64,000 nucleotides of DNA from Chloroflexota bacterium (GTDB lineage Bacteria; Chloroflexota; UBA11872; VXOZ01): NCBI GenBank assembly GCA_965221905.1, contig OZ244922.1, forward strand, positions 2,496,001-2,560,000, in the 5' to 3' direction. A model generated the notes under the pieces. The model was not told the origin of the DNA and made no database searches. It was given only the letters and a program-made list of their open reading frames with translations. This document shows, piece by piece, positions 8,405 to 22,308 of the stretch; within the stretch, counting starts at the first letter, position 1, and every line of letters starts with the position of its first letter. A program made the translations under genes and the position numbers.

Positions 8405-9739
8405 ATGACACTCGACCAAGTAAAGTCACTGGTTGCAGAGCGCGGCATCAAGTTTTTTCTCTGTTCATACGTGGAGATGAGCGGCGCGCCCAAGGCAAAA
8501 CTGATTCCCGCAACTCACGTGGAGGACATGGCGAACGGCAGCGCCGGTTTTGCCGGTTTTGCCGCAGGCGACATGGGCCAAAGTCCGCATGATCCCGATA
8601 TGCTATGCCATCCCGACTTTGATTCGCTCCTCATCCTTCCTTGGCGGCAGGACATTGCGTGGGTTTCGGGCAACATCCACGTAAACGATGAGCCGTGGCC
8701 ATACGGCCCGCGCACGATCCTGGAGCAGCAGTTGGCGAAAGCGGAGCAGGCTGGCTATCGCATGAACGTGGGCACGGAAGCCGAGTTCATGTTGCTCAAG
8801 CAAGACGAGCATGGCGGCTATGCGCCCTGGGACGCGCTCGACACCCTCGATAAGCCTTGCTACGACGTGCGCGCGCTCTACCGGAATCTCGACATCATCA
8901 CCACCCTGGTCGGCTACATGCAGGACTTGGGCTGGGAACCATATGCATCCGACCACGAAGACGCCACCTGCCAATTCGAGCTCAACTGGCTCTATTCCGA
9001 TGGGCTTACGACCGCCGATCGGCACACGTTCTTCCGCTGGATGGTCAAGACCGTCGCCGAGGAGAACGGTCTCACCGCCACGTTCATGCCCAAGCCGTTC
9101 CAAAACCTTACCGGCAATGGCGCCCACTGCCACGTGAGCCTTTGGGACACGGCCAACACCACCAACCTGTTCTTGGACGAAGACGATGAGAACGGTCTCT
9201 CCCAGCTTGCTTATTGGTTCACGGGCGGCGTCCTGCACCACGCCCGCGCGCTCACTGCAGTGACCTGTCCCATCGTCAATAGTTACAAACGCCTGATCCG
9301 GGGTCAGCCCCGCTCCGGCGCTACCTGGGCGCCTGTTTACGGCACCTACGGCGGCTCTAACCGCACCCAGATGATCCGCATTCCCGATCCGGGACGCATT
9401 GAGAACCGCATTGTGGACGGCGCTACCAATCCCTATCTCGCATACACGGTGCTGATGGCCGCCGGCCTCGACGGTATCGCCAACCAGATGGACCCCGGTG
9501 TGCGCAACGACGACAATCTCTACGAGCTATCGGAAGAAGAACTCCGCCGCCGCGGCATCACGTTCCTGCCCACCAGCCTCCCCGAGGCGCTGGACGAACT
9601 CGACAAGGACGACGTTCTCAAGGAAGCACTGGGACGCGAGTACGCCGACTACTTCATCGCAGTCAAGCGCGACGAATGGAACCGCTACCACCTGAGCGTG
9701 AGCCAATGGGAGCTGGATAACTATATCGGGATATTCTAG
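8405..9739 (+). CDS. gmaS: Gamma-glutamylmethylamide synthetase (type III glutamate-ammonia ligase, GlnT-like)
   Basis: GFAGFA, KPCYD, DHEDATCQFE, TFMPKPF and SGATWAP motifs; sits in the mgs/mgd cluster. Confidence 0.85.
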   Translation: MTLDQVKSLVAERGIKFFLCSYVEMSGAPKAKLIPATHVEDMANGSAGFAGFAAGDMGQSPHDPDMLCHPDFDSLLILPWRQDIAWVSGNIHVNDEPWPYGPRTILEQQLAKAEQAGYRMNVGTEAEFMLLKQDEHGGYAPWDALDTLDKPCYDVRALYRNLDIITTLVGYMQDLGWEPYASDHEDATCQFELNWLYSDGLTTADRHTFFRWMVKTVAEENGLTATFMPKPFQNLTGNGAHCHVSLWDTANTTNLFLDEDDENGLSQLAYWFTGGVLHHARALTAVTCPIVNSYKRLIRGQPRSGATWAPVYGTYGGSNRTQMIRIPDPGRIENRIVDGATNPYLAYTVLMAAGLDGIANQMDPGVRNDDNLYELSEEELRRRGITFLPTSLPEALDELDKDDVLKEALGREYADYFIAVKRDEWNRYHLSVSQWELDNYIGIF

Positions 9740-9915: not shown

Positions 9916-9962
9916 GACGCCTCATTCACACGTATAGCTGTCACTGAAGATTGGAGAATAGT

Positions 9963-11123
9963 ATGGCGCAATACCTTGACGCAGAATCCGGCATTACTTT
10001 GGACAACGAGTTCGAGTGTGCCAGCGCGCGGGAGTTCAGCAGAATTGGCCCCGGTCACTATGAAGTTCAGTTGCTCATAGAGAACTACAATCCTGCGTAC
10101 CCGGTGGTATGGGAGTACATGTTCTGCTTCCGGGTGCGGTCGCAGTCAGACCAAGCGCAAACGGTGACGTTTCGCGTCATGAAGGCGCGGGGCGGCATCA
10201 GCTATTTGGACGGACCGCACTTTACCAGGCGCAACGGTAACTGGGAACTCGTGCCCCGTTCCCAGACGCAGATGAGCAATGAGTACGTCGAGGTCACGCT
10301 CGACGTGGCGCCGGGCGACGAGTTTCTGCTGGGCAACCACCCATTCCCCACGCCGGGAGAGGTGGAGTCCACAATGCACGCCACTGCCGCGGCGTTGGAC
10401 AACTTCTCGGTACGCGAATACGGGCGCACGCCGGAAGACCGTTCGCTGCTGGCGCTGGAGAGCGAACCCCGCGACCAAACCGTCATCGTCTTCACCACTA
10501 TGCAGCCGGCCGAGCCGGGCGACGTGCCCATTCTCTTCCTCGCTCATTGGCTCAGCAGTGGTTCTGCCGAATCGGAGAGATTGCTGAACGACTACCAGTT
10601 CTGCCTGCTGCCCATGACAAACCCGGACGGGGCCGCTCACGGTCATTCCGTGACGAATGCTGCCGGGGAGGTGCCGCGCTGCCACTTCGAGGATGCCGCG
10701 TTAGGCAAGCCCGCGCCCTCCGAAGCCGCCGTCATTTGGCAGTATCACGCTGAGAAGAAACCCGCTGTGTTCATCGAGTTTCACATCCACTACCTCGTGC
10801 ACGCCCCGCATAAGCTCGTAGGCATCAACGTTAACGAGCCCTCTGACGAACGGGGTGTGGTTGCGCTGCCTGCAGCCACCGTTTTATGGGGCGAATTGCT
10901 CAAGCTAAACAGCCACTGGCGGGCGCGCCTCATCGAGGCTGAAAGCGATACCTTTCGCAATAGCCTCGATTCAACCCTGGCCCGCGACTTTGGCACTTTC
11001 GGTTATGTCTATCAGATCTATGCTCCCACCGTCGAGGCTGCCTGTGCCCATGCCGTGGACGTAGTGCGCGCCACCATGCAAGGTGTGGCCGCGGCTTCTG
11101 CCCTGACACTGCGCAACGCCTGA
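9963..11123 (+). CDS. M14 (Nna1/cytosolic carboxypeptidase-like) fold protein with altered catalytic residues
   Basis: N-terminal DNEFECAS beta-domain, YGRTPEDRSL, QPAE (for HxxE), PMTNPDG, IEFH. ATG 9963 follows GGAG. Confidence 0.75.
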   Translation: MAQYLDAESGITLDNEFECASAREFSRIGPGHYEVQLLIENYNPAYPVVWEYMFCFRVRSQSDQAQTVTFRVMKARGGISYLDGPHFTRRNGNWELVPRSQTQMSNEYVEVTLDVAPGDEFLLGNHPFPTPGEVESTMHATAAALDNFSVREYGRTPEDRSLLALESEPRDQTVIVFTTMQPAEPGDVPILFLAHWLSSGSAESERLLNDYQFCLLPMTNPDGAAHGHSVTNAAGEVPRCHFEDAALGKPAPSEAAVIWQYHAEKKPAVFIEFHIHYLVHAPHKLVGINVNEPSDERGVVALPAATVLWGELLKLNSHWRARLIEAESDTFRNSLDSTLARDFGTFGYVYQIYAPTVEAACAHAVDVVRATMQGVAAASALTLRNA

Positions 11124-11374
11124 TCCGGCATCATCGCTGCTGTCGCGCACGCGAGATTCTACTCTTTAGAAGATAGACAAAACGCTTTATTCGCTGTAAT
11201 CTACAGGCAGGCAGCGTGAAACATTAAAGTCAATGCGGGGGAGGCGGCAACCACGCAGCTTGTAGTTGGAATGTGCACGCCGAAATAGAGAGGAGGCCCG
11301 AACACACGCAGTTGGCCGTCATCCCTATGCGCAGTAGTGAGTGTGATACGACGGAGAAAGGACGAAAATTGACG

Positions 11375-12808
11375 ATGTATAAGAGTCATCTCACACGCAG
11401 GAGCGTCCTAGCCGGTATAGCCGGATCATTCAGCATTATGGCGGCAGCCGCGTGCGCACAAGGGGCCGCAACGCAGATGCCGGCAGAAGAGCCAAAGGCC
11501 GAGGCTGAGGAGCCTAAACTGGCCGAAAAAGCACCGGTAATGGAAACGGTCACGGTGCGCGCCGGTTGGATCTCCAATGACGCCTCGGTGATCGAGACCT
11601 TCTACGGCGATCTGCTTGTCGCCAGCTTCGAGGAGGCGCATCCGAACATCAAGGTGGACTGGGAAGGCGCGCCCGCCAGAGAACACCATGCCAAGCTCGC
11701 AACCCAGTTGGCGGCCAACGAAGCGCCGGACGTGTTCCATAGCGACGGCGTCCGCTACGCGCTCTTCCGTGACTCCGGCTACATCAATGATCTCGCGCCT
11801 TTCTTGCAGCGCGACGCCGGCACACTGCAAGGCGTAATCGGCCCCGAGTTCTTCCGCGATCCCGACGGCAGCACGTGGGGTATCTCCAGCAGCATCGGCG
11901 GCGTCGCCACGGCGTACAACACGGCGCATTTCGATAAGTTCGGTGTCAACCGGCTCCCCGAGGGCGGACTAAACTGGAACCCGACCGACGGCGGCCAATT
12001 CTTGGAGATAGCGCTAGAGCTCACCAAGCGCGGCAGCACCGAGGCGGACCCGGTCTGGGGATTCTTCAACAACAAGCAGATCACGGGCGACGTGTTGAGC
12101 TTGCTCGTGCAGAACGGCACGAATTTCCTCAGCGATGACTACCGCCGCTCGCGAATCCATGAGCCGGAGTTCATGGAAGTGGTGGAATTCCTGCACAACC
12201 TGGAATTCAAGTGGCAGGTCTCGCCCAATCCTGAAGATGTCGCGCTGTTGCGGGAGGCCATACCCGAAGGGCAAACCTACCACGCGCCCTTTGCTTTTCA
12301 GCGGACAGCCATGATGAATCTGCTCATGGGCCAGTCCGGCCGCTGGGGCGGCCCCGATCCGGAGAGCTTGCCGGTTGTGGCGGTGAAGTTCCTGAGCGGC
12401 CCCCAGAACGACAAGGTACCGAGCGGCGGGCGTGTGATGGAGCACTGGGGCAGCACGTCGAATCCTGACGAGGCATGGGACCTCATGCGCTTCTTCTTGA
12501 CCGATCTCGAGGTGAACATTGCGACGTTTACCGTGCTGAAGTCCGGCCTGCCGCCCAATACCACTTTCTGGGACGACGAACGCCTCTATGTTAAGTCCGG
12601 TCGGCCGCCGCGCGAAATCGAGGCCTACATGGCCACGCTGCGCGAGGGCAAGGGCTACTATTGGCAGGTGAATGGTGTCTGGAGTGCTTGGATTGGCGCG
12701 TACCGAACCGGCCAAAGAGCGATTTGGGCCGGCGAGGTCACGGTAGAGGAGGCTATGCAGCAAGCCAGCAAGGTGGCGCAGGCAGCACTGGACGAGTATT
12801 ACGGATAA
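11375..12808 (+). CDS. Tat-exported lipoprotein, ABC extracellular solute-binding protein (family 1-like), paralog 1
   Basis: TRRSVL twin-arginine motif, AAAC lipobox, E/K/A/P-rich linker, FEEAHPNIKV and APDVF. Confidence 0.85.
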   Translation: MYKSHLTRRSVLAGIAGSFSIMAAAACAQGAATQMPAEEPKAEAEEPKLAEKAPVMETVTVRAGWISNDASVIETFYGDLLVASFEEAHPNIKVDWEGAPAREHHAKLATQLAANEAPDVFHSDGVRYALFRDSGYINDLAPFLQRDAGTLQGVIGPEFFRDPDGSTWGISSSIGGVATAYNTAHFDKFGVNRLPEGGLNWNPTDGGQFLEIALELTKRGSTEADPVWGFFNNKQITGDVLSLLVQNGTNFLSDDYRRSRIHEPEFMEVVEFLHNLEFKWQVSPNPEDVALLREAIPEGQTYHAPFAFQRTAMMNLLMGQSGRWGGPDPESLPVVAVKFLSGPQNDKVPSGGRVMEHWGSTSNPDEAWDLMRFFLTDLEVNIATFTVLKSGLPPNTTFWDDERLYVKSGRPPREIEAYMATLREGKGYYWQVNGVWSAWIGAYRTGQRAIWAGEVTVEEAMQQASKVAQAALDEYYG

Positions 12809-12931: not shown

Positions 12932-13204
12932 CTATGGAAAAAACTTGATGACCACAATGATTAATCCGGCGGCGGCAAAGACCATCCTACCCAGCCGTAG
13001 CGTCATACGTTGCTTAAGAAGCTGCAACTCTGTCTGGAGTTCTGTTTTAAGAAGCTGGATCTCTGTATGGAAATAATGCTTCGTTACCAATCCGCTTGTC
13101 GCCTCTCCCAGCACCTCTACGAGGGCAACAGCGTGTGGTTCAGTAAACCCTGCGCCTTTGAGCAATTTTGCCGCCTTGAGTGTGTCGAACGGGGATACAG
13201 CCAT
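12932..13204 (-). CDS. DUF1640/CCDC90-like small coiled-coil membrane-anchored protein
   Basis: FDTLKAAKLLKGAGFTEPHA head, LVTK neck, coiled coil and C-terminal TM helix; ATG 13204 follows an AG-rich RBS. Confidence 0.75.
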   Translation of the reverse strand: MAVSPFDTLKAAKLLKGAGFTEPHAVALVEVLGEATSGLVTKHYFHTEIQLLKTELQTELQLLKQRMTLRLGRMVFAAAGLIIVVIKFFP

Positions 13205-13393
13205 GCCCTCTCTCCTTTTGCGGCGCCACCGCATAGCATCAGGCAAGACCACCATCTTGTACGCATCATATACGCTATCTGTTGTACATGTTTAGGGAGC
13301 GCTCTATAGCGGTGCGTTCACGAATAAACCTGCGTAGGCAGGTCACCGGGTCTCTCCGCAGCCTGCTTACGCTTAGCCTTCACTCATCTCGGG

Positions 13394-14791
13394 TTAGATC
13401 GGCGCCGCTACCCTTCCCGCCAAGCGGACGTCTGCCTGCAGGAACAGCGTACCGTCTTGCCGCTGTTGCGCAGAGAGTTGCCCCCGGGGATCGCAGACAA
13501 CCACTAAGCTTTCCTTGCCTTCCGGAATTCGGAAGCGCACGTCACAGACTGTCTGCTCGAGTCCAGTAATTATAGGCACGAGAGCGTGACCAATCTGCAC
13601 CCCGCCACCCTCATCGAGCGGTCCATCGAAGACCATTACCGCAACGTCGCGCGCATCTAACACACCCCGGTTCGCCAGCGTCACCTGCACGCGCCCAATG
13701 TCCCGGTTAAGTTCGGACACCTCGACCGCAGCAATTTCCAGGTCGCACTCTACCCGGTCAACAGCTACCGCTGCGTGCGCATCAATCAGGCCGTGACCGA
13801 GAAACGGATTCCATCCAGCGCCGCCGAACTGACGTGCTGTATTGCGCATCACCATCCGCACTTGCTCAGCCGTCAAACCGGGATGCCGCGACCAGATGAG
13901 CGCCGCGAGGCCGGATACGTGGGGGATCGCCATGCACCCGCCCGACCACTCCACGTAGCCGCCATGCGCGGTGGAAATCGTACTCAACACGCCGTACTCC
14001 TCTTGGGGGTGCACACCCAGCGCTGCCTTCATGACATATTCCTCTGCCAGCGGCAAGATGCGCCGGGAGGGATCATTGGCAAGGTCGTACCCGCGCCAGC
14101 CCGATGGTGCGGCGACCTCGGTCAGGTCGCCATAGTCGCTAAAGTCGGCCATACGCCCGCTCTTTTCGGCGGAGGCCACGTTGACCACGCCCGGACACAG
14201 CGCGGGATACTTAGCAACATTCTGCGCTTGATTGCCGCCGGTAGCGTTCACGATCAACACGTCATGCTGCTGCGCGTAGAGGCACGCCTCGAGCAGCGCC
14301 TCAGAGTCGGGCGGCGTCCAGGCACTATAGATCGTGGGCAGGCCGTGCTTGATGTTGTACATGTAGCCCACGTTGCTCAGGTTAATCACCCGCGCGCCGT
14401 TTTCCACGGCAAACCGGATGCCCCGCGCAATCTCAGCATCGTCATATGCATTCACCCGAACAGGGAGAATGCGACATTCCGGAGCAACGCCGGCAATGCC
14501 AATGCTGTTGTCCGCGCGTGCGGCAATTATGCCGGAGACGTGGGTGCCGTGGTCGGTGCAATCCTTGTGCTTGCGCGGCTGCGACGTGTCGTGAACGGTG
14601 TCGTCATCATCCCACAAGTCCCGGCCCGGTAGGAACTGCCCCTCAAGGTCCGGGTGCCCAACGTCAAAGCCCTTCTCGATAACGGCAACCACCACGTCGG
14701 GGCTGCCCCGTGTAACTTCCCACGCATCGGGAGCGTTTATGAGGTGCAGCCCCCATTGCTTTTCAAACAAGGGGTCATTCACTGGCATCAT
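13394..14791 (-). CDS. S8 subtilisin-fold protein with Glu-His-Cys triad and C-terminal CARDB/Ig-like domain
   Basis: NDPLFEKQWGL, VAVIEKG..HPDL, HGTHVSGIIAA, VINLS, TGGN and SGGCMAIPHVSG; no signal peptide or propeptide; ATG 14791 follows AAGGA. Confidence 0.85.
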   Translation of the reverse strand: MMPVNDPLFEKQWGLHLINAPDAWEVTRGSPDVVVAVIEKGFDVGHPDLEGQFLPGRDLWDDDDTVHDTSQPRKHKDCTDHGTHVSGIIAARADNSIGIAGVAPECRILPVRVNAYDDAEIARGIRFAVENGARVINLSNVGYMYNIKHGLPTIYSAWTPPDSEALLEACLYAQQHDVLIVNATGGNQAQNVAKYPALCPGVVNVASAEKSGRMADFSDYGDLTEVAAPSGWRGYDLANDPSRRILPLAEEYVMKAALGVHPQEEYGVLSTISTAHGGYVEWSGGCMAIPHVSGLAALIWSRHPGLTAEQVRMVMRNTARQFGGAGWNPFLGHGLIDAHAAVAVDRVECDLEIAAVEVSELNRDIGRVQVTLANRGVLDARDVAVMVFDGPLDEGGGVQIGHALVPIITGLEQTVCDVRFRIPEGKESLVVVCDPRGQLSAQQRQDGTLFLQADVRLAGRVAAPI

Positions 14792-14929
14792 GCTGGTATT
14801 CCTTTGTGCGTTACGCGCAGGACACTTCTGACCATGACAATTGTGACCCATACGAGCCCAAGTGTGCATTCACTATGAATTGCTTTAGGTAGTATGTCAA
14901 TCGGTGCGCTCAAGTCTCGAGCTCTCCAC

Positions 14930-14957
14930 TTGACGCCAACAGCCCGAATAGTACACT
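14930..14957 (+). promoter_or_regulatory. Putative sigma70 promoter of SBP paralog 2
   Basis: TTGACG-16bp-TACACT. Confidence 0.45.
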
Positions 14958-15125
14958 ATCGGTATGAGAAACAGAGTTCTGCAGAATGCCAATTCCGTAC
15001 GATACGAAAGGAGAGGCAACACAAACGACCCAGGCAGATCTGCACTCAACTCGGCACATCATTAGTGCTTTATGCGCTGAGGTGTTCTGAAAAACTGCAA
15101 ACAGAATGACATGAGAGGGTAAACA

Positions 15126-16568
15126 ATGCCATTTGCTCGAAGTCGCATGACGCGACGACATATGCTGGCGGGCACCGGCGGCGTGCTCGGCGCAATTGCG
15201 CTGGCGGCCTGCGGTCAAGCCATGCCGGCCGAGTCCGGCGAAATGCCGGAGAAGGCGGAAGAGACAACTAAAGCCGAAGAACCGGCGCCAGCGGAGAAGG
15301 TTACTGTATCGGTTAGGTGGATCTCCAACGACCTTACCTTGGTTGAGCCATTCTACGAGAATCTCGTTGTGGCGCGATTCTACGAGAACTACGACAACAT
15401 CGAGCTTGATTGGGTAGGCGACACTTACCGCGACACCATGAGCCAGCTCAATACACAGCTCGCCGCCGGTGACGCTCCCGATGTTTTCCACAACGATGGC
15501 GTCTTCTTCGCTCGCAACCGTGACGCGGGGTTCGCTCGGTCACTCACCGAATACACTAAGCGTGATGCCGGGCAGCTTGAGGGAATCCGTGGTCCGGAGT
15601 TTTTCAGCGACGAGAAGCAAGACGTCTACGGCGTCTGCATGGGCGTCGGTTGCTCGGCGTTTGCCTACAACACCGACATCTTTGACCGCATGGGCATCAA
15701 CCGTCTGCCCGCCGAGGGCATCGACTGGAATCCGGGCGACGGCGGCACGTTGCTGGAAATAGCGTCTGACATTACCGCAAAGGGTGAGACCGAAGATCCC
15801 AAAATCTGGGGATTCTTCAATAACAAGCAGATCACCTTTGACGTGCTGGGCATGTTGCTCCAGAACGGCACGAACTTCCTGACCGACGACTACCGCCGGT
15901 CACGCATACACGAGCCGGAATTCGTCGCGGTGATTCAGTTCCTGTGGGACTTGGAGTTCAAGTATCGGGTCTCGCCAAATCCCGATGATATTGCAGAATT
16001 CAATGCTAGCATTCCCGAAGGGTCCGGTTACCATGGACCTTTTGCCTGGCAACGGGCAGCCATGATGAATCTCGGCCTCGGCCAGTCCGGTTCCTGGGGT
16101 TCGCCGGAACCGGAAAAACTACCCATCGAAGCGGTGCAGTTCATCAACGGCCCGGCAAATAGCAAAGTGCCTGGCGGCGGACGTGTGGTAGAGATGTGGG
16201 GCAGCACCGAAGTGCCCGACGAAGCCTGGGAAGTGATGAAGTTCCCGCTGGTCGACCATGAGGTTCAGGTAGGGGTCTTCACAATCCTACGTGACGGCCT
16301 GCCGGCCAATACTAATACCTGGGATGACCCACGTCTGCTTGAGAAGAGCGGTCGACCGCCACGTGAGGTTGAAGCGTATATGGCGCCGCTTAGGGAAGGC
16401 CTCGGCCAGTACTGGCAGGTCAATGGCGTATGGCTGCAATGGATCCGCGCATTCCGCGGCCAGCAGTCCCGTGCGTGGGCGCAGGAAGTCACCGTCGAGG
16501 AAGCCATGCGTGAGGCGAGTAACCTAGCGCAAGCTCACCTGGACGAGTACTACGCCGACCAGAGCTAA
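15126..16568 (+). CDS. Tat-exported lipoprotein, ABC extracellular solute-binding protein, paralog 2
   Basis: TRRHML motif and LAAC lipobox; shares long identical blocks with 11375-12808 (WGFFNNKQIT, DDYRRSRIHEPEF, KSGRPPRE, YWQVNGVW). Confidence 0.85.
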   Translation: MPFARSRMTRRHMLAGTGGVLGAIALAACGQAMPAESGEMPEKAEETTKAEEPAPAEKVTVSVRWISNDLTLVEPFYENLVVARFYENYDNIELDWVGDTYRDTMSQLNTQLAAGDAPDVFHNDGVFFARNRDAGFARSLTEYTKRDAGQLEGIRGPEFFSDEKQDVYGVCMGVGCSAFAYNTDIFDRMGINRLPAEGIDWNPGDGGTLLEIASDITAKGETEDPKIWGFFNNKQITFDVLGMLLQNGTNFLTDDYRRSRIHEPEFVAVIQFLWDLEFKYRVSPNPDDIAEFNASIPEGSGYHGPFAWQRAAMMNLGLGQSGSWGSPEPEKLPIEAVQFINGPANSKVPGGGRVVEMWGSTEVPDEAWEVMKFPLVDHEVQVGVFTILRDGLPANTNTWDDPRLLEKSGRPPREVEAYMAPLREGLGQYWQVNGVWLQWIRAFRGQQSRAWAQEVTVEEAMREASNLAQAHLDEYYADQS

Positions 16569-17077: not shown

Positions 17078-17791
17078 ATGACGCCACTGTTCACTGCCCT
17101 TGTTGCTTTCGGCGCCGGCATTGCCTCTTTCCTCTCGCCGTGCGTGCTGCCGCTTGTACCCGCCTACATAGGGCACTTGGCAGGCACGAGCGTATCTGAA
17201 AAGCAAGATGCTCAGGCGACAATGCGCACCGTCGCCCACGCGGCCTTCTTCGTGCTCGGCTTCTCTACCATCTTCGTCTTGCTTTGGACTTTGATCGGCT
17301 TGGTGGGCTGGGCAATTCAGGGGTACACCTATTACTTGCGGTACGTCGGCGGGGTGATTCTGGTTGTCTTTGGACTGCACGTTGCCGGGGTGTTTCGCTT
17401 GCGCTGGCTCAATCAGGAGCGCCGCGTCTACGTAAATCGCAGCCGCCCGCGCAGTTTACTCACCTCCTGGCTCGTCGGCCTCACCTTTGCCGCAGGGTGG
17501 ACACCCTGCATTGGCCCCATCCTCGCCGGCATCATTGCCCTGGCGACAACCAGAGACACCGTCGGCCAGGGCTCGCTGCTGCTGGCGCTCTACTCCGCCG
17601 GACTTGGCATACCCTTCTTGCTCACCGCAATCGGACTCTCGCGCGCTGTACCGGTACTGCGCTGGATGAATCGCCACGGTCACACCGTAGAGTTAGTCAG
17701 CGGCAGCTTTCTGATTGTCGTCGGTGTCATGCTATTTACGAATACGTTCGCGCAACTCGCACGCTATTTCACTTGGGTACCGATTTTCTAA
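17078..17791 (+). CDS. ccdA: Cytochrome c biogenesis protein CcdA (DsbD transmembrane family)
   Basis: SFLSPCVLPLVPAY and FAAGWTPCIGPIL motifs; multiple TM helices. Confidence 0.92.
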   Translation: MTPLFTALVAFGAGIASFLSPCVLPLVPAYIGHLAGTSVSEKQDAQATMRTVAHAAFFVLGFSTIFVLLWTLIGLVGWAIQGYTYYLRYVGGVILVVFGLHVAGVFRLRWLNQERRVYVNRSRPRSLLTSWLVGLTFAAGWTPCIGPILAGIIALATTRDTVGQGSLLLALYSAGLGIPFLLTAIGLSRAVPVLRWMNRHGHTVELVSGSFLIVVGVMLFTNTFAQLARYFTWVPIF

Positions 17792-17954: not shown

Positions 17955-20738
17955 CTAAGGTATCCGATATACCTCCGCGGCCGGTTTCACCGGACGTGGG
18001 ATCCACAGCGGTCGGCGCAGCGCATTCGTACCCTCTGCCGGCCGCGTCTTCTTAATCCACTCGAGATAGACTTGGTGGGACTTATTCGTATCCACAAACA
18101 CATCGCCGTACTGGTCGTCGGCGCCTGCCGTTTCCACGCACACCTTTTGGTGCCAGCAGTGCATGCCGCTCACCGGATCCGGGTGGACTGGAAACGTAAG
18201 GTTCTGATGCACACCGGCATCCTTCCACCAGACGCGTTCAGAATCCGGATCGGTGCTCTTGAACGGCTCCACGCCCTGAAGTTGGCGCATAAACCACTGT
18301 CCGTCGCCGATGTTCTTCAGGTCCACAAGAGCCGTCGACCAGCGCTCGCCGCCGCTCTCCTTTGAGAGTCGCCAGCGTCCGAGATGATGCGAGCACGCCA
18401 CTATTCCGGGGCGGATACCTTCAGTGACCCACACTCGGATAACGAAGTACCCCACTTCAGTATTCACCTTTGCGAGGTCCCCGGTCTCAAAGCCAAGCCG
18501 CTCGGCGTCCTGCGGGTGCACCCATAGCGGGTTAGTATGCGAAATCTCATACAACCACTTGGCGTTGCCGGCCCGCGTGTGAATGAGCGTGGGCAGGCGG
18601 AACGTCGGCAGCAGGACGTATTCACCCTTGCCGTGGTCGATGTTCCCCCGATTTACGTGACTCTTGATGTAGGTCGGCACGGCGAATTCCGCCCACTTGA
18701 ACTCCCGCATCGTATCGGAGAAGAATTCAAGCTTCTTGGAAGGGGTGGCAAAGCCTTCAACTGCCTTGCCGTCGACTTCCACGCCGATTACTTCACCGTT
18801 CTTACGCACGTGATGTGTTACCGGGTCAACCTCAGCACCGTTAAGCTGCTCAGCGGATAAAGGATTCTCGTGCAACGCGTAGGTATCGCGCTTTACTTCG
18901 AACGCGCCGTACTTGCGCATAAACGCCAGCGGCGTGAGGTCTTCTTTCGACGCAGCTTCGGGCAGGCCGGGCACGCTATTCTCGAAAATCCACTGGTAGT
19001 ATTCGCTAATGGTAAGTTTCTCGCCGGGGCGGTAGGGCGATTCGAAGAATTCGCGCACACCCAAGCTGCCGTCCGGATCAATGCGCCAGGAAAGCTCGAT
19101 CCAAAACTCGTCCTCTTCCCATACCTCGCCAGGGTTTGCCTCGTACGTAAACTCTACGGCATCGCCGAGTTTCTCACGCGCAACCCGCAGCACCGGTTGG
19201 CGGAACGCGATCCAGGCGCCAGCCTGGGTCTCTTGGCTCATGAGATCGTGGCGCTCGGCGGCGTTGCCCATTGGCAACACGTAGTCCGCGAACCACGCCG
19301 TCTCGCTCCAAACCGGCGTGAGCGCGGCGTGCATCCCTATCTTCTCTTCGTCGCTGAGCATCTCAATCCACGAGGCCCCATCCGGATTCGTCCAGACCGG
19401 GTTGTAGACCCTCGTGAAATACGTATCCACCTTACCGCGTCCCTCTTTGAGAAAGTGCGGCAGCAGAATACTCATTTCGTGGTGTGCCAGCGGGTATTCC
19501 TTCGGCCACAGGAGTTCGCTCCACACCTTTTGCGGCGGCGGCTTGATATACGGTGCGGGCGCAAACTTATTCCAACTGTTAGGGGACGTGCCGCCGCGCG
19601 TGCCGATGCTTCCGGTCAGCACGCCGAGAAATGTTAGGCAGCGGGAGACCTGCCAGCCACCTTCGTTGCCGGAGGCCGCGCTGCGCCAGACATGGCTGGC
19701 AAAGGCTGTGCCCGCTGCGGCGATCTCGCGCGCCACCGCGACCATCTGGCTGGCGTCTACGCCACTCTCCTGCTCGGCAAATTCCGCTGTGTACGGGGCA
19801 TAGAATTCTTTGATGGCAGCGATAAAGTTTTCGAACGTTGCATCTACGTCAGGATGCTCAGTGCGCATGTACTCGTGCCAATTCAGCCACTTCTCCATGA
19901 AGTCGCTGTTGTAAAGGTCTTCCTTCAAGATGACGTTCGCCATGGCAAGCAGCATTGCTGCCTCAGAACCCGGCCACGACGAGAGCCAGTAGTCTGCCCG
20001 CGAGGCCGTGTTGGAGAGCCGCGTATCGATAACGCAAATCTTGGCGCCGGAGAGTTTGCCCTCGATGATGCGCTGAGCATGGGGGTTGAAATAGTGGCCG
20101 GTTTCCAGGTGGGCGCTGATCAGCAGCATGAACCGCGAGTTTGCATGGTCGGGCGAGGGTCGGTCGGCGCCTTGCCAAAGCGTGTATCCGAGGCGTGCGC
20201 CGGAGGAGCAAACGTTGGTATGGCTGTTGTGCCCATCCACACCCCATGCCTGGAGCACACGGTCCATATAGCCGTCGTGACCGGGGCGACCGACATGATA
20301 CATCACCTCAGTGCGCCGGTCCTCCTGCAACGCGCGTCGTATGCGCGCAGCCAGCGTATCAAGCACTTCGTCCCAGCTAGTGCGTTCCCACTCACCCGAG
20401 CCGCGAGCTCCGGTGCGTTTCATGGGGTAGAGAATGCGCTCCGGATCGTGCACTTGGTTGATGGTCGCCGGGCCCTTGGCACAATTCCGGCCGCGGCTTC
20501 CGGGATGTGCCGGATTGCCCTCGAACTTGCGGATGCGCATGTCTTCTTTATCGACATATGCCAGCAGTCCGCAAGCAGCCTCGCAGTTGAAGCACACCGT
20601 CGGGACCAACATGTAGTTCTTGGTGACCTTCTTGGGCCAGACGTCGGGATCGTACTCTGTCCAGTCATCCCATTGCTCAACCGGTGGGTAGTTTTTAAGT
20701 TGGCCTGACTCCGGAAACTGCGGATCGAAAACTGACAT
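17955..20738 (-). CDS. Molybdopterin (bis-PGD) oxidoreductase catalytic subunit, DMSO-reductase superfamily (Psr/Phs-like)
   Basis: CFNCEAAC...NCAKG 4Fe-4S motif, HTNVCSS putative Mo ligand, ADYVLP and C-terminal molydop-binding domain; no Tat signal. Confidence 0.88.
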   Translation of the reverse strand: MSVFDPQFPESGQLKNYPPVEQWDDWTEYDPDVWPKKVTKNYMLVPTVCFNCEAACGLLAYVDKEDMRIRKFEGNPAHPGSRGRNCAKGPATINQVHDPERILYPMKRTGARGSGEWERTSWDEVLDTLAARIRRALQEDRRTEVMYHVGRPGHDGYMDRVLQAWGVDGHNSHTNVCSSGARLGYTLWQGADRPSPDHANSRFMLLISAHLETGHYFNPHAQRIIEGKLSGAKICVIDTRLSNTASRADYWLSSWPGSEAAMLLAMANVILKEDLYNSDFMEKWLNWHEYMRTEHPDVDATFENFIAAIKEFYAPYTAEFAEQESGVDASQMVAVAREIAAAGTAFASHVWRSAASGNEGGWQVSRCLTFLGVLTGSIGTRGGTSPNSWNKFAPAPYIKPPPQKVWSELLWPKEYPLAHHEMSILLPHFLKEGRGKVDTYFTRVYNPVWTNPDGASWIEMLSDEEKIGMHAALTPVWSETAWFADYVLPMGNAAERHDLMSQETQAGAWIAFRQPVLRVAREKLGDAVEFTYEANPGEVWEEDEFWIELSWRIDPDGSLGVREFFESPYRPGEKLTISEYYQWIFENSVPGLPEAASKEDLTPLAFMRKYGAFEVKRDTYALHENPLSAEQLNGAEVDPVTHHVRKNGEVIGVEVDGKAVEGFATPSKKLEFFSDTMREFKWAEFAVPTYIKSHVNRGNIDHGKGEYVLLPTFRLPTLIHTRAGNAKWLYEISHTNPLWVHPQDAERLGFETGDLAKVNTEVGYFVIRVWVTEGIRPGIVACSHHLGRWRLSKESGGERWSTALVDLKNIGDGQWFMRQLQGVEPFKSTDPDSERVWWKDAGVHQNLTFPVHPDPVSGMHCWHQKVCVETAGADDQYGDVFVDTNKSHQVYLEWIKKTRPAEGTNALRRPLWIPRPVKPAAEVYRIP

Positions 20739-20757
20739 TGCGCAGTGGCTCCTCTCG

Positions 20758-22308
20758 CTAGCTCAGCGGCAGCGCTTGACCGGCCTTTACCCAAACATCT
20801 TCGAAAGCCAGCAGTCCCGCGAGCGCGCAAACACCGGCCGCAGCGGCCACGAGCTCATACCCGCCAATTGCATTCGCTAAGAGCAGTGCCACCGGCACTA
20901 TGTGCCCTACAAGAACTACACCGACCCAGAAGCGCTGCGAGTATTGACCGCGCAGGATCATTTGAGCGGCCTTGGATGCATCTCTCGTACCATGCGGCAG
21001 CCACAGCTCACCCACCAGGATGACGAAAAGATTGGCGACTAAACTCCAAAGAAGCACAGTATGTAGGAAACCTTCTGTCTGCTCCGTTGTTTCAACCACG
21101 AGCCCCAAAATCGCAAGGGACGCTGCACCCGCCATCGCGGCCTGCACCAGCAGGTGCACGGGCAATGCGGGGCTCAACCAGAGGTCGCGCGCTTTCGATT
21201 GGGCAAAGATAAAGCCCGTATAGATCGCGGCCAGAATAGCCAATACGCCGCCAGGCCACCAAAGCACCTGCATCAGACCGCCAGCACCGGCGAAAGCAGC
21301 AAGAATGCTAAGACCTACGATCACGCCGAAGAACAACAGAATAAACGTACCGATGGCAACCCATGAACGCAATTGTGGGCGAATGAGAATGGTATAGAAG
21401 CGGTCGGGACGCTGGAGGTCCCAAACCAATAAGCCGGCCGTAATCGCCAAGAAGATCAGAGCAATAATGGGGCCTCCCCACGCCAGGAGCGGGTTATCGG
21501 TTACCAGGCCCAACGCAAGACCCGCCGCGGGCAACAGGAATGCGCCAGCAGCAATAGACTTCGTCCAAATGTACGCGCTGACCTTCCAGCCCCAAGGCGA
21601 CGGATGCTCCACGTCGTACACCGTTGTCGCGGACTTGGCTACCAAGTCCTGCAATAGGTTGGTCTCTTCGATGGGGATGGCAGCGCCATTGCCATTAGCA
21701 TTCGGCATTTCATTCCAGATGCCGTAATCCTTGATCGGGGTCGAAGCCGACGGAGTTAGGGTGCTCTGGTCGGCATCGATATAGAAGAGTTTCGGTACCG
21801 TGCCTTTTTCCGGTTTACGCACTTGCACCGGCTCACGGGAAATAAGCTTTGTAATGTAGCTCGTGGGATCGTCCAAGTCTCCCGATACGATCGCCTGGGT
21901 CGGACAAACGACCTGGCACGATGGTTCCAATCCAACTTCCACGCGATGGGCGCAGAAGTTGCACTTTGCGGCAGTATGCGTATTGGGATCGATGTGCAGC
22001 GCATCATACGGACATGCCTGCAGGCACGCCTTACAGCCTATGCACTTCTCAGGGTCAAAATCCACGATGCCGTCGTCGCGCCGCCACAATGCCGTCACCG
22101 GACAAGACGGGATACAGGGAGCATCATCGCAGTGATTGCAGCGGAGTACTGTGAAGTGGCGGCGGTTATCGGGAAACTGGCCTGTCTCGACGTACTTCAC
22201 CCAGGTGCGGTAAACGCCCAACGGCACGTCATGCTCGGACTTGCACGCCACCGTGCACGCATGGCAACCGATGCACTTGCGATTATCAATGAGAAAGCCA
22301 AATCTCAT
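20758..22308 (-). CDS. Fused 4Fe-4S ferredoxin (NrfC/DmsB-like) + NrfD/PsrC membrane anchor
   Basis: CIGCHACTVAC, CNHCDDAPC, CIGCKACLQACP and CNFCAHR motifs followed by a multi-TM NrfD domain (WDLQRPDRF). Confidence 0.9.
   Translation of the reverse strand: MRFGFLIDNRKCIGCHACTVACKSEHDVPLGVYRTWVKYVETGQFPDNRRHFTVLRCNHCDDAPCIPSCPVTALWRRDDGIVDFDPEKCIGCKACLQACPYDALHIDPNTHTAAKCNFCAHRVEVGLEPSCQVVCPTQAIVSGDLDDPTSYITKLISREPVQVRKPEKGTVPKLFYIDADQSTLTPSASTPIKDYGIWNEMPNANGNGAAIPIEETNLLQDLVAKSATTVYDVEHPSPWGWKVSAYIWTKSIAAGAFLLPAAGLALGLVTDNPLLAWGGPIIALIFLAITAGLLVWDLQRPDRFYTILIRPQLRSWVAIGTFILLFFGVIVGLSILAAFAGAGGLMQVLWWPGGVLAILAAIYTGFIFAQSKARDLWLSPALPVHLLVQAAMAGAASLAILGLVVETTEQTEGFLHTVLLWSLVANLFVILVGELWLPHGTRDASKAAQMILRGQYSQRFWVGVVLVGHIVPVALLLANAIGGYELVAAAAGVCALAGLLAFEDVWVKAGQALPLS

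Follow-up and report, generated by a model that had tools for sequence, protein, structure and literature searches.

In the window analysed here, a stretch of 64,000 nucleotides from a Chloroflexota bacterium (GCA_965221905.1, contig OZ244922.1, positions 2,496,001 to 2,560,000), a gene on the minus strand encodes a homolog of the subtilisin-like serine peptidases of family S8 in which Glu and Cys occupy the positions of the catalytic Asp and Ser, and the catalytic His and the oxyanion Asn are retained (Table 1). Its product, we argue, is probably a functional enzyme of the cytoplasm that belongs to a natural lineage of thiol-subtilases and depends on this cysteine for activity. The longest minus-strand open reading frame (ORF) at the locus, 13394..14869, is intact and spans 491 amino acids. 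However, all homologs begin at an inner Met (MMPVNDPLF, 14791) that is preceded by a Shine-Dalgarno-like AGGA. A promoter-like site further upstream, identified as a consensus match only in a region with 3 such sites against 1.3 expected in the consensus scan, would place the ATG at 14869 at or before the start of the transcript. The longer frame is probably not translated, and based on the homolog starts, the AGGA and the promoter-like site we take the product to be the 465-aa form. This protein has neither a signal peptide nor a prodomain: a mature-type NDP motif begins at residue 5, and no hydrophobic stretch was found among the 26 codons upstream of the inner Met. The original prediction, made from the letters of the window, had described an intact frame that starts directly at the NDP motif without signal or propeptide, and this description holds.

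Table 1. Positions of the Cys-bearing subtilisin homolog, its parts and signals, further genes of the window, and two related genes elsewhere in the same genome.
Feature	Position	Strand	Remarks
Glu-His-Asn-Cys subtilase homolog, coding sequence	13394..14791	minus	465 aa plus stop; homolog starts, Pfam
Catalytic S8 (subtilisin-fold) domain	13757..14791	minus	residues 1-345; Pfam, AF2, Foldseek
Glu39 codon (GAG)	14675..14677	minus	VAVIEKG on thermitase IAIVDTG; equivalent to catalytic Asp32 in subtilisin BPN' numbering
His81 codon	14549..14551	minus	DHGTHVSG on thermitase GHGTHCAG; catalytic His, equivalent to His64; invariant in alignments A1 and A2
Asn187 codon	14231..14233	minus	ATGGN on thermitase AAAGN; oxyanion Asn, equivalent to Asn155; invariant in A1 and A2
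Cys286 codon (TGC)	13934..13936	minus	SGGCMAIPHVSG on thermitase SGTSMATPHVAG (GTSMA); position of the nucleophile Ser221
Remodelled start of nucleophile helix, Gly285-Cys-Met-Ala-Ile-Pro290	13922..13939	minus	BPN' positions 220-225
Clade-specific insertion 1 (YMYNIKHGLP..WTPP)	14312..14371	minus	~residues 141-160, beside the rim of the S1 pocket; pLDDT 57-60
Clade-specific insertion 2 (GWRGYDL..ILPL..EEYG)	13988..14101	minus	~residues 231-268; short helix 251-258 in the model
C-terminal beta-sandwich	13397..13756	minus	residues 346-465, 120 aa; common to the whole signal-less lineage
Shine-Dalgarno-like AGGA	14800..14803	minus	8 nt 5' of the ATG at 14791; read from the sequence
Promoter-like TTGACA-17-CATAGT	14872..14900	minus	10/12 matches; consensus match only
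Type III glutamine synthetase	8405-9739	plus	TIGR03105, 601 bits vs cutoff 469.6; adjoins M14-like gene 9951-11123
107-aa ORF	12932-13255	minus	weak CCDC90-like/DUF1640-type match, E 3.8e-4, under cutoff; hydrophobic C-terminus
DsbD-type transmembrane gene	17078-17791		
Molybdopterin oxidoreductase (927 aa) and fused 4Fe-4S/NrfD-type membrane subunit (516 aa)	17955-22308	minus	
453-aa paralog	G000:C1:3293229-3294311 (L082 1279-2640)	minus	own-genome search
446-aa paralog	G000:C1:2820863-2821933 (L083 910-2250)	minus	own-genome search

Pfam Peptidase_S8 (PF00082) matches residues 58-360 of the 491-aa form (E 3.9e-48), scoring 164.7 bits where the cutoff is 21.8 and covering profile positions 3-288 of 288. 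The closest solved structure is thermitase (1thm/1tec; phmmer against the PDB, E 7e-33), and the entry 7xr8, named 'major intracellular serine protease', is matched at E 2.8e-22. More specific assignments were considered and rejected. The best NCBIfam score was obtained with the mycosin model of type VII secretion (TIGR03921), which was matched in two stretches with 213 bits, below its equivalog cutoff of 278.75; dentilisin PrtP, PatA/PatG, EprS and QhpE scored far under their cutoffs. The protein is not a sedolisin (S53) either, as His81 and Asn187 are retained, the nucleophile position holds Cys and no S53 family appeared among the Pfam matches. Residue equivalences were established by HMMER alignment to thermitase (1tec/1thm) and by a multiple alignment with canonical S8 proteins (A1); they are given in subtilisin BPN' numbering, anchored on the GTSMAxPH motif. 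The alignment to thermitase corroborates the codons for Cys and Glu that had been named in the original prediction as well as its observation that the His motif and the oxyanion Asn are kept. Judged by the Asp-His-Ser triad that defines MEROPS family S8 in the catalytic sense, the protein falls outside the family, since Glu39 and Cys286 stand at the Asp and Ser positions.

An AlphaFold2 (AF2) model built on 30 sequences of the clade has a mean per-residue confidence (pLDDT) of 87.8 and a predicted TM score (pTM) of 0.91, and the 10-residue blocks holding Glu39, His81, Asn187 and Cys286 have mean pLDDT values of 96, 96, 80 and 92. The structure check proposed with the original prediction is thereby answered in its favor at the level of a model: a subtilisin fold is predicted with confidence, with the four residues in high-confidence segments and at canonical topological positions. 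Glu39 ends the strand 34-39, His81 lies in the helix 76-90, Asn187 follows the strand 179-183 and Cys286 starts the helix 285-302, which we take to be the places of their counterparts in the structure of subtilisin BPN'. The top Foldseek matches in the PDB are subtilisins and thermitase (E ~1e-22, target-normalised TM 0.84-0.89, identity ~28-31%). Both clade-specific insertions correspond to gaps in the canonical S8 rows of A1 and are unaligned to thermitase. The 120 C-terminal residues form seven strands in the whole AF2 model as well as in a separate model (pLDDT 79.5). A CARDB-like domain had been proposed here; the beta-sandwich is supported by the models, whereas the CARDB label is not, as Pfam returned neither CARDB nor any other family for these 120 aa even at E<=10 and the feature similarity to CARDB (PF07705) of 0.79 is under the level that counts as more than a lead in this kind of comparison. 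The best Foldseek matches were FnIII-like domains of GH3 glucosidases and ASF1 (TMq ~0.5), so that the predicted domain is best described as a generic Ig-like beta-sandwich.

An indication that the cysteine is reactive comes from two positions that change together with it. Threonine occupies position 220 in 239 of 249 Ser domains, but this residue is Gly in 34 of the 37 Cys domains of the first data set and in all 26 sampled rows of a second Cys-bearing family (family 2, described below). At position 225, Pro is found in 230/249 Ser domains and in 23/37 Cys domains, the other 14 having Gly (8) or Ala (6), and in none of the 26 family-2 rows, which carry Gly (21), Ser (3) or Ala (2). Among the 30 rows of the window protein's own clade, 13 have Gly or Ala at 225. 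The review PMC9126251 reports that Ser221-to-Cys yields thiolsubtilisin, whose thioester intermediate resists hydrolysis; that subtiligase combines this exchange with P225A, which relieves steric crowding from the sulfur; that subtiligase gains about 100-fold in speed from the pair; and that besides Ala no residue but Gly is tolerated at 225. The natural proteins thus repeat the engineers' solution, for which there is hardly an explanation other than a reactive sulfur. The window protein has the Cys at 221 and Gly at 220 but keeps Pro225 (Pro290) and does not carry the Ala/Gly of the subtiligase-like site; here, Gly220 together with the longer Glu may be an alternative re-spacing of the catalytic relay.

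Homologs were collected by a word-indexed search of 5.8 billion proteins and a HMMER pass over 1.84 billion representatives at 50% identity. The former returned a tight group (P0002-P0032 and P0034) with ~93% query coverage and identities from 93% down to 38%, and the latter added P0122, P0123, P0126 and some fragments. When the four active-site columns were read in 266 proteins, all 32 full-length members of the clade were Glu-His-Asn-Cys (31 single-stretch rows and P0029 in two stretches). The Ser-nucleophile S8 domains among the same proteins had Asp at the acid site in 249/249 cases wherever it was covered and were otherwise canonical. In an alignment of 30 clade rows (A2), Cys286, His81 and Asn187 are invariant (30/30) and Glu39 is present in 29/30, the exception being P0034 with Asp. 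The closest homologs carry neither the canonical Asp and Ser nor random residues at these sites, and constraint on the oxyanion Asn would only be expected if catalysis is retained.

Purifying selection on the gene is evident from the ratio of nonsynonymous to synonymous substitutions (dN/dS; Nei-Gojobori method, NG86), which ranged from 0.061 to 0.104 in the 10 pairs formed by the window gene and four syntenic orthologs; as dS is ~1.0-1.3 and near saturation, these ratios are approximate. The catalytic part (0.043-0.096) and the C-terminal part (0.086-0.162) are both constrained, and the ratios resemble those of five flanking genes (0.014-0.125). In a set of 19 genes, the Glu, His, Asn and Cys sites each occur with either of their two synonymous codons (GAG 13 and GAA 6 for Glu, TGC 18 and TGT 1 for Cys); the window genome is counted twice in this set (window and L228), and G-labelled genomes may repeat L001-L004. 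The earlier suggestion that the two exchanges were selected rather than products of decay is supported by both the uniform clade and the low dN/dS. Compared with the syntenic locus L004, the region 13394-16568 is a mosaic: the gene at 15126-16568 for a solute-binding protein (SBP) is 98% identical (dS 0.17) and the adjacent S8 gene 86% (dS 1.0), which suggests a recombination breakpoint between the two.

The clade with Glu and Cys (E/C) is monophyletic with a support of 94 in the Shimodaira-Hasegawa-like approximate likelihood ratio test (SH-aLRT) in both maximum-likelihood trees, so that Glu and Cys do co-occur as a conserved group, as the original prediction had proposed to check. Both trees were quick searches with SH-aLRT support only. 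The first was built from 60 of the 266 proteins (16 E/C, 2 with Asp and Cys (D/C), 2 odd ones and the first 40 of 146 canonical proteins filtered for length and coverage) and kept C-terminal columns for the non-canonical rows; the second used catalytic-domain columns only for 62 rows (14 E/C, 2 D/C, 2 odd, 14 of 97 family-2 rows and 30 canonical). A branch supported with 100 in the first tree and 99 in the second separates the E/C clade from the canonical proteins. The distribution of the E/C family is narrow. As a core gene it is present in 10/10 other genomes of the window genus, in syntenic position in L001-L004, and it occurs in one of eight genomes of a second taxonomic family, whereas a search at E<=1e-60 of the 382 remaining Chloroflexota genomes in the sample did not find it. 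Outside the phylum there is one locus each in a metagenome-assembled genome (MAG) of Zipacnadia and one of Phycisphaerae. A metagenome scan had patterns too general to bear on the abundance of the clade: its best 80 loci were only 27-36% identical, in the range of ordinary S8 genes here, and none was used. One E/C protein from a metagenome, P0027, is the sole clade member with an N-terminal leader, which is twin-arginine-like (SRRQFLLASGTAAGAF), and may be exported already folded.

Cys-bearing subtilisin homologs are not confined to this clade. The window's own 3.52-Mb genome encodes two further S8 homologs outside the window (Table 1), which have no signal peptide, share the C-terminal domain and match the query up to residue 420. 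With the motifs VAVID, DHG/GHH, DNRG and GGCMA they read Asp-His-Asn-Cys. Both adjoin an M24/creatinase-like gene, in one case in a same-strand SBP - S8 - M24 arrangement. They belong to family 2, which comprises 95 clusters at 90% identity in the protein collection and 46 loci (L094-L139) in the species-genome collection. Of 97 family-2 rows, 88 are D-H-N-C; seven others are fragments that lack a column, and the only real exceptions are P0270 with Ala at the nucleophile and P0341 with Pro at the His. According to their record titles the loci come from Chloroflexota, Armatimonadota, Planctomycetota, Verrucomicrobiota, Gemmatimonadota, Kiritimatiellaeota, Lentisphaerales, Spirochaetales, Clostridia, Latescibacteria and Zipacnadia as well as one Bathyarchaeota and one Paceibacterota bin. 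Several members are annotated by their sources as 'S8 family serine peptidase'. In family 2 (alignment A3), further His residues are invariant close to the acid motif (P0267 numbering: H53, H72, H151; HPDHxGHLW...HGWDF); these are absent from the window's family and may form a metal site.

A few proteins could represent evolutionary intermediates: P0034 and P0126 read D-H-N-C, the relative P0133 reads D-H-N-S, lacks a signal peptide and shares the C-terminal domain, and the odd P0170 has Glu, His, Glu in place of the oxyanion Asn and a Cys shifted by one residue. In the second tree, family 2 (support 100), the E/C family (94), the pair P0034/P0126 (100), P0133 and P0170 form a polytomy opposite the canonical proteins; the minimum is two Cys/Ser changes, and the tree neither orders the events nor shows a single origin of the Cys. 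The combination of Asp with Cys in family 2 and in two intermediate proteins implies that Glu is not needed for Cys. Apart from P0027 with its leader, the lineage is recognized by the absence of a signal peptide, a GGC(M/Q)A motif and the C-terminal beta-sandwich, all of which the window protein has. By these features, the lineage extends beyond a single gene to conserved, multi-phylum Cys-bearing subtilisin homologs.

Two paralogous SBP_bac_1 genes (11273-12808 and 15126-16568) flank the window gene, which is alone on its strand there. Its surroundings also hold the M14-like gene, the type III glutamine synthetase, and a DAO oxidoreductase together with a GCV_T gene, an arrangement that is syntenic in four relatives (L001-L004). 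In L110 and L120, the family-2 Cys-S8 genes have a member of the same M14-like family directly upstream. The 107-aa ORF was considered as a conserved same-strand partner and rejected: it sits in a gap of 586 nt that measures ~160 nt and is ORF-less in the four syntenic relatives, and it is probably a strain-specific insertion. At the E/C locus of genome G390, an M24/creatinase-like gene lies directly upstream on the same strand, with an ATP-binding cassette (ABC) importer, a CE4 deacetylase, isochorismatase-like genes and an Amidohydro_2 gene in the vicinity. The Zipacnadia member follows an anaerobic sulfatase maturase and is close to GH123-like and Gfo/Idh/MocA genes, and the Phycisphaerae member precedes a GHL6 gene. 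The radical S-adenosylmethionine (SAM) gene beside the L005 member had raised the idea of a peptide maturase for a peptide that is ribosomally synthesized and then modified post-translationally (RiPP), but it scores as anaerobic sulfatase maturase with 413 bits against a cutoff of 349, and the idea was given up.

Neighbors were clustered over 41 loci, 37 of family 2 and four of the E/C family. Around the family-2 genes the most frequent was a CE4 polysaccharide-deacetylase-like gene at 15 loci (immediately downstream on the same strand in 12/15), followed by Gfo/Idh/MocA genes at 14 loci, one of them the E/C locus L005, which often precede the Cys-S8 gene. DUF3604 occurred at 12 loci, a URO-D/MtaA-like gene at 10 (immediately downstream on the same strand in 9/10), a DegT aminotransferase at eight, an AraC regulator at seven and an M24-like gene at six, all of the latter in Chloroflexota. 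Among the clustered neighbors there was no protease-specific partner, inhibitor or precursor peptide. The family-2 gene order, recurring across many phyla, looks like an undescribed catabolic operon. What the neighborhoods share points weakly to the breakdown, in the cytoplasm, of compounds that the cell imports, perhaps glycoconjugates that are N-acylated or carry peptides.

From the sequence data we infer a catalytic status for Cys286, a type of reaction and a kind of substrate. Cys286 would serve as the nucleophile, His81 as the general base, Glu39 as the acid that orients the His and Asn187 as the oxyanion hole. Catalysis would proceed through a thioacyl-enzyme intermediate that could be resolved by water, in the manner of a peptidase, amidase or esterase, or by an amine in an acyl transfer. 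The neighborhoods suggest, weakly, that its task would be to break down peptide-like or N-acylated (glyco)conjugates after their import and not general proteolysis. Several points weigh against an active enzyme of this kind. Engineered thiolsubtilisin is a very poor amidase, which implies that a Cys in the subtilisin fold is no guarantee of peptidase activity. The proximity of Cys to His and of His to Glu is presumed from the topology of the model, the cleft strand equivalent to residues 97-104 is ~5 residues shorter than in canonical proteins (A1 columns 601-625), and the two insertions near the cleft, modeled with low to moderate confidence, could occlude it. Besides the approximate nature of the dN/dS values, the evidence for expression is a weak hint: contigs of close relatives (~85-99% identical) in metatranscriptome libraries of two studies cover 13573-14854, but contigs from RNA libraries attest presence and do not prove transcription. 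Finally, with heterogeneous neighborhoods and a window gene alone on its strand, any physiological role is a guess.

A special case of the active thiol enzyme would be a natural peptide ligase, transpeptidase or acyltransferase, in which the thioacyl intermediate is mainly resolved by an amine. The pairing of Cys221 with Gly or Ala at 225, which is the engineered subtiligase solution (PMC9126251), occurs in 14/37 Cys domains and 23/26 sampled family-2 rows, and a cytoplasmic location would spare the thiol from oxidation. However, the window protein retains Pro225, its neighbors and those of its relatives are catabolic (solute-binding proteins, M24-like, CE4 and Gfo/Idh/MocA genes) and no precursor-peptide, ATP-grasp or RiPP-type partner gene was found nearby, the radical SAM neighbor at L005 being a sulfatase maturase by score rather than a peptide maturase. 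We regard this as unlikely. A non-catalytic pseudo-protease, in which the four residues would be conserved only for structure or for ligand binding in a scaffold, would agree with the remodeled cleft and with the poor amidase activity of thiolsubtilisin. Pseudoproteases do exist in S8, CspA and CspC being examples (PMC7200643). Pseudoenzymes, however, usually drift at their catalytic sites, and here Cys, His and Asn are invariant and Glu is nearly so across 38-93% identity; the same Cys, His and Asn are kept in 88/97 family-2 rows with mostly fragments as exceptions, and without a reactive sulfur there would be no sense in the compensating changes at 220 and 225. We consider a loss of catalysis quite improbable.

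Cys, His and Glu are also common metal ligands, and the additional invariant His residues by the acid motif of family 2 (H53, H72, H151) would suit a metal-binding or redox-sensing site in place of a relay of nucleophile, base and acid. Such a site seems most improbable to us: subtilisin geometry puts the His between the other two residues with both ring nitrogens in use, so that chelation of a single ion would need a rearrangement, the invariant oxyanion Asn would be left without explanation, and the window's family does not conserve the additional His residues. An error of sequencing or assembly, or an ordinary serine subtilase gene decaying into a pseudogene, has nothing in its favor beyond the prior rarity of such a triad. 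This explanation can be set aside almost completely, as the frame is intact, the same residues recur in independent assemblies, in 10/10 congeneric genomes and in other phyla, and dN/dS is ~0.06-0.10. Reads or contigs from the DNA runs of two studies agree with the assemblies: run X1, which may be the source sample, covers the whole stretch with 0 differences, and run X3 of another study contains identical pieces, including 14264-14749, which cover the Glu codon but not the Cys codon. Taken against these alternatives, a natural Cys-dependent enzyme on the subtilisin fold is the explanation that we favor.

Comparison with known systems sets the protein apart from each of them. With thiolsubtilisin and subtiligase it shares the subtilisin fold, the Cys at the nucleophile position and the retained His and oxyanion Asn, and many of its natural relatives also share Gly or Ala at 225. 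Unlike them, however, it is a natural, conserved protein under purifying selection that has Glu for Asp, Gly for Thr220 and the original Pro225, lacks a signal and a prodomain, bears two insertions and a C-terminal beta-sandwich, and is only ~28-31% identical to subtilisins. It is clearly homologous and equal in fold to canonical S8 enzymes such as thermitase, AK.1 protease and fervidolysin but differs from these in having Glu-His-Cys for Asp-His-Ser, a cytoplasmic location and the shortened 97-104 cleft strand. The intracellular subtilisin proteases (ISPs) resemble it as cytoplasmic S8 proteins without signal peptide or classical prodomain, yet they keep Asp-His-Ser and have neither the C-terminal beta-sandwich nor the two insertions. 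The sedolisins (S53), which have Ser-Glu-Asp on the subtilisin fold, are a precedent for an altered catalytic set, but they keep the Ser and exchange His for Glu and the oxyanion Asn for Asp, whereas the window protein keeps His and Asn and changes the nucleophile. A natural exchange of Asp for Glu at the acid site reportedly occurs in a Glu-His-Ser subset of prokaryotic subtilases described by Siezen, Renckens and Boekhorst in 2007 (Proteins); the Ser nucleophile is reportedly kept there. The closest evolutionary logic is found in picornain 3C, which processes viral polyproteins with a Cys-His-Glu or Cys-His-Asp triad on the chymotrypsin fold of clan PA: a serine-protease fold in which Ser has become Cys and, in some members, Asp has become Glu. 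Its fold is unrelated to that of the window protein (clan SB) and there is no homology, but it shows that full activity is compatible with such a double swap. Full-text searches of literature that lacks most subscription journals and MEROPS turned up no natural subtilase with a Cys nucleophile.

Subtilisin is a textbook serine protease; the variant with Cys for Ser, a classic of enzyme chemistry, underlies the engineered peptide ligases. If the Cys-dependent activity proposed here holds true, a fold that has been studied very thoroughly would gain a catalytic type. Going further, the Cys-His-Glu proteins and the larger Cys-His-Asp family might together constitute a new catalytic type on the subtilisin fold, which would turn clan SB into a mixed-nucleophile clan, as clan PA already is. 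Since evolution has reached the second-shell changes of the engineers (Gly220, and Gly or Ala at 225), some of the members would by this reading act natively as peptide or acyl ligases, or as transacylases, on peptide- or glyco-conjugates imported into the cytoplasm; this we consider possible, though doubtful. The lineage would also amount to an evolutionary experiment in re-tuning a Ser-protease site for sulfur through Thr220Gly, Pro225Gly/Ala and Asp32Glu, would offer natural scaffolds and starting points for the engineering of ligases or transacylases, and would flag the label 'S8 family serine peptidase' as a systematic annotation error.

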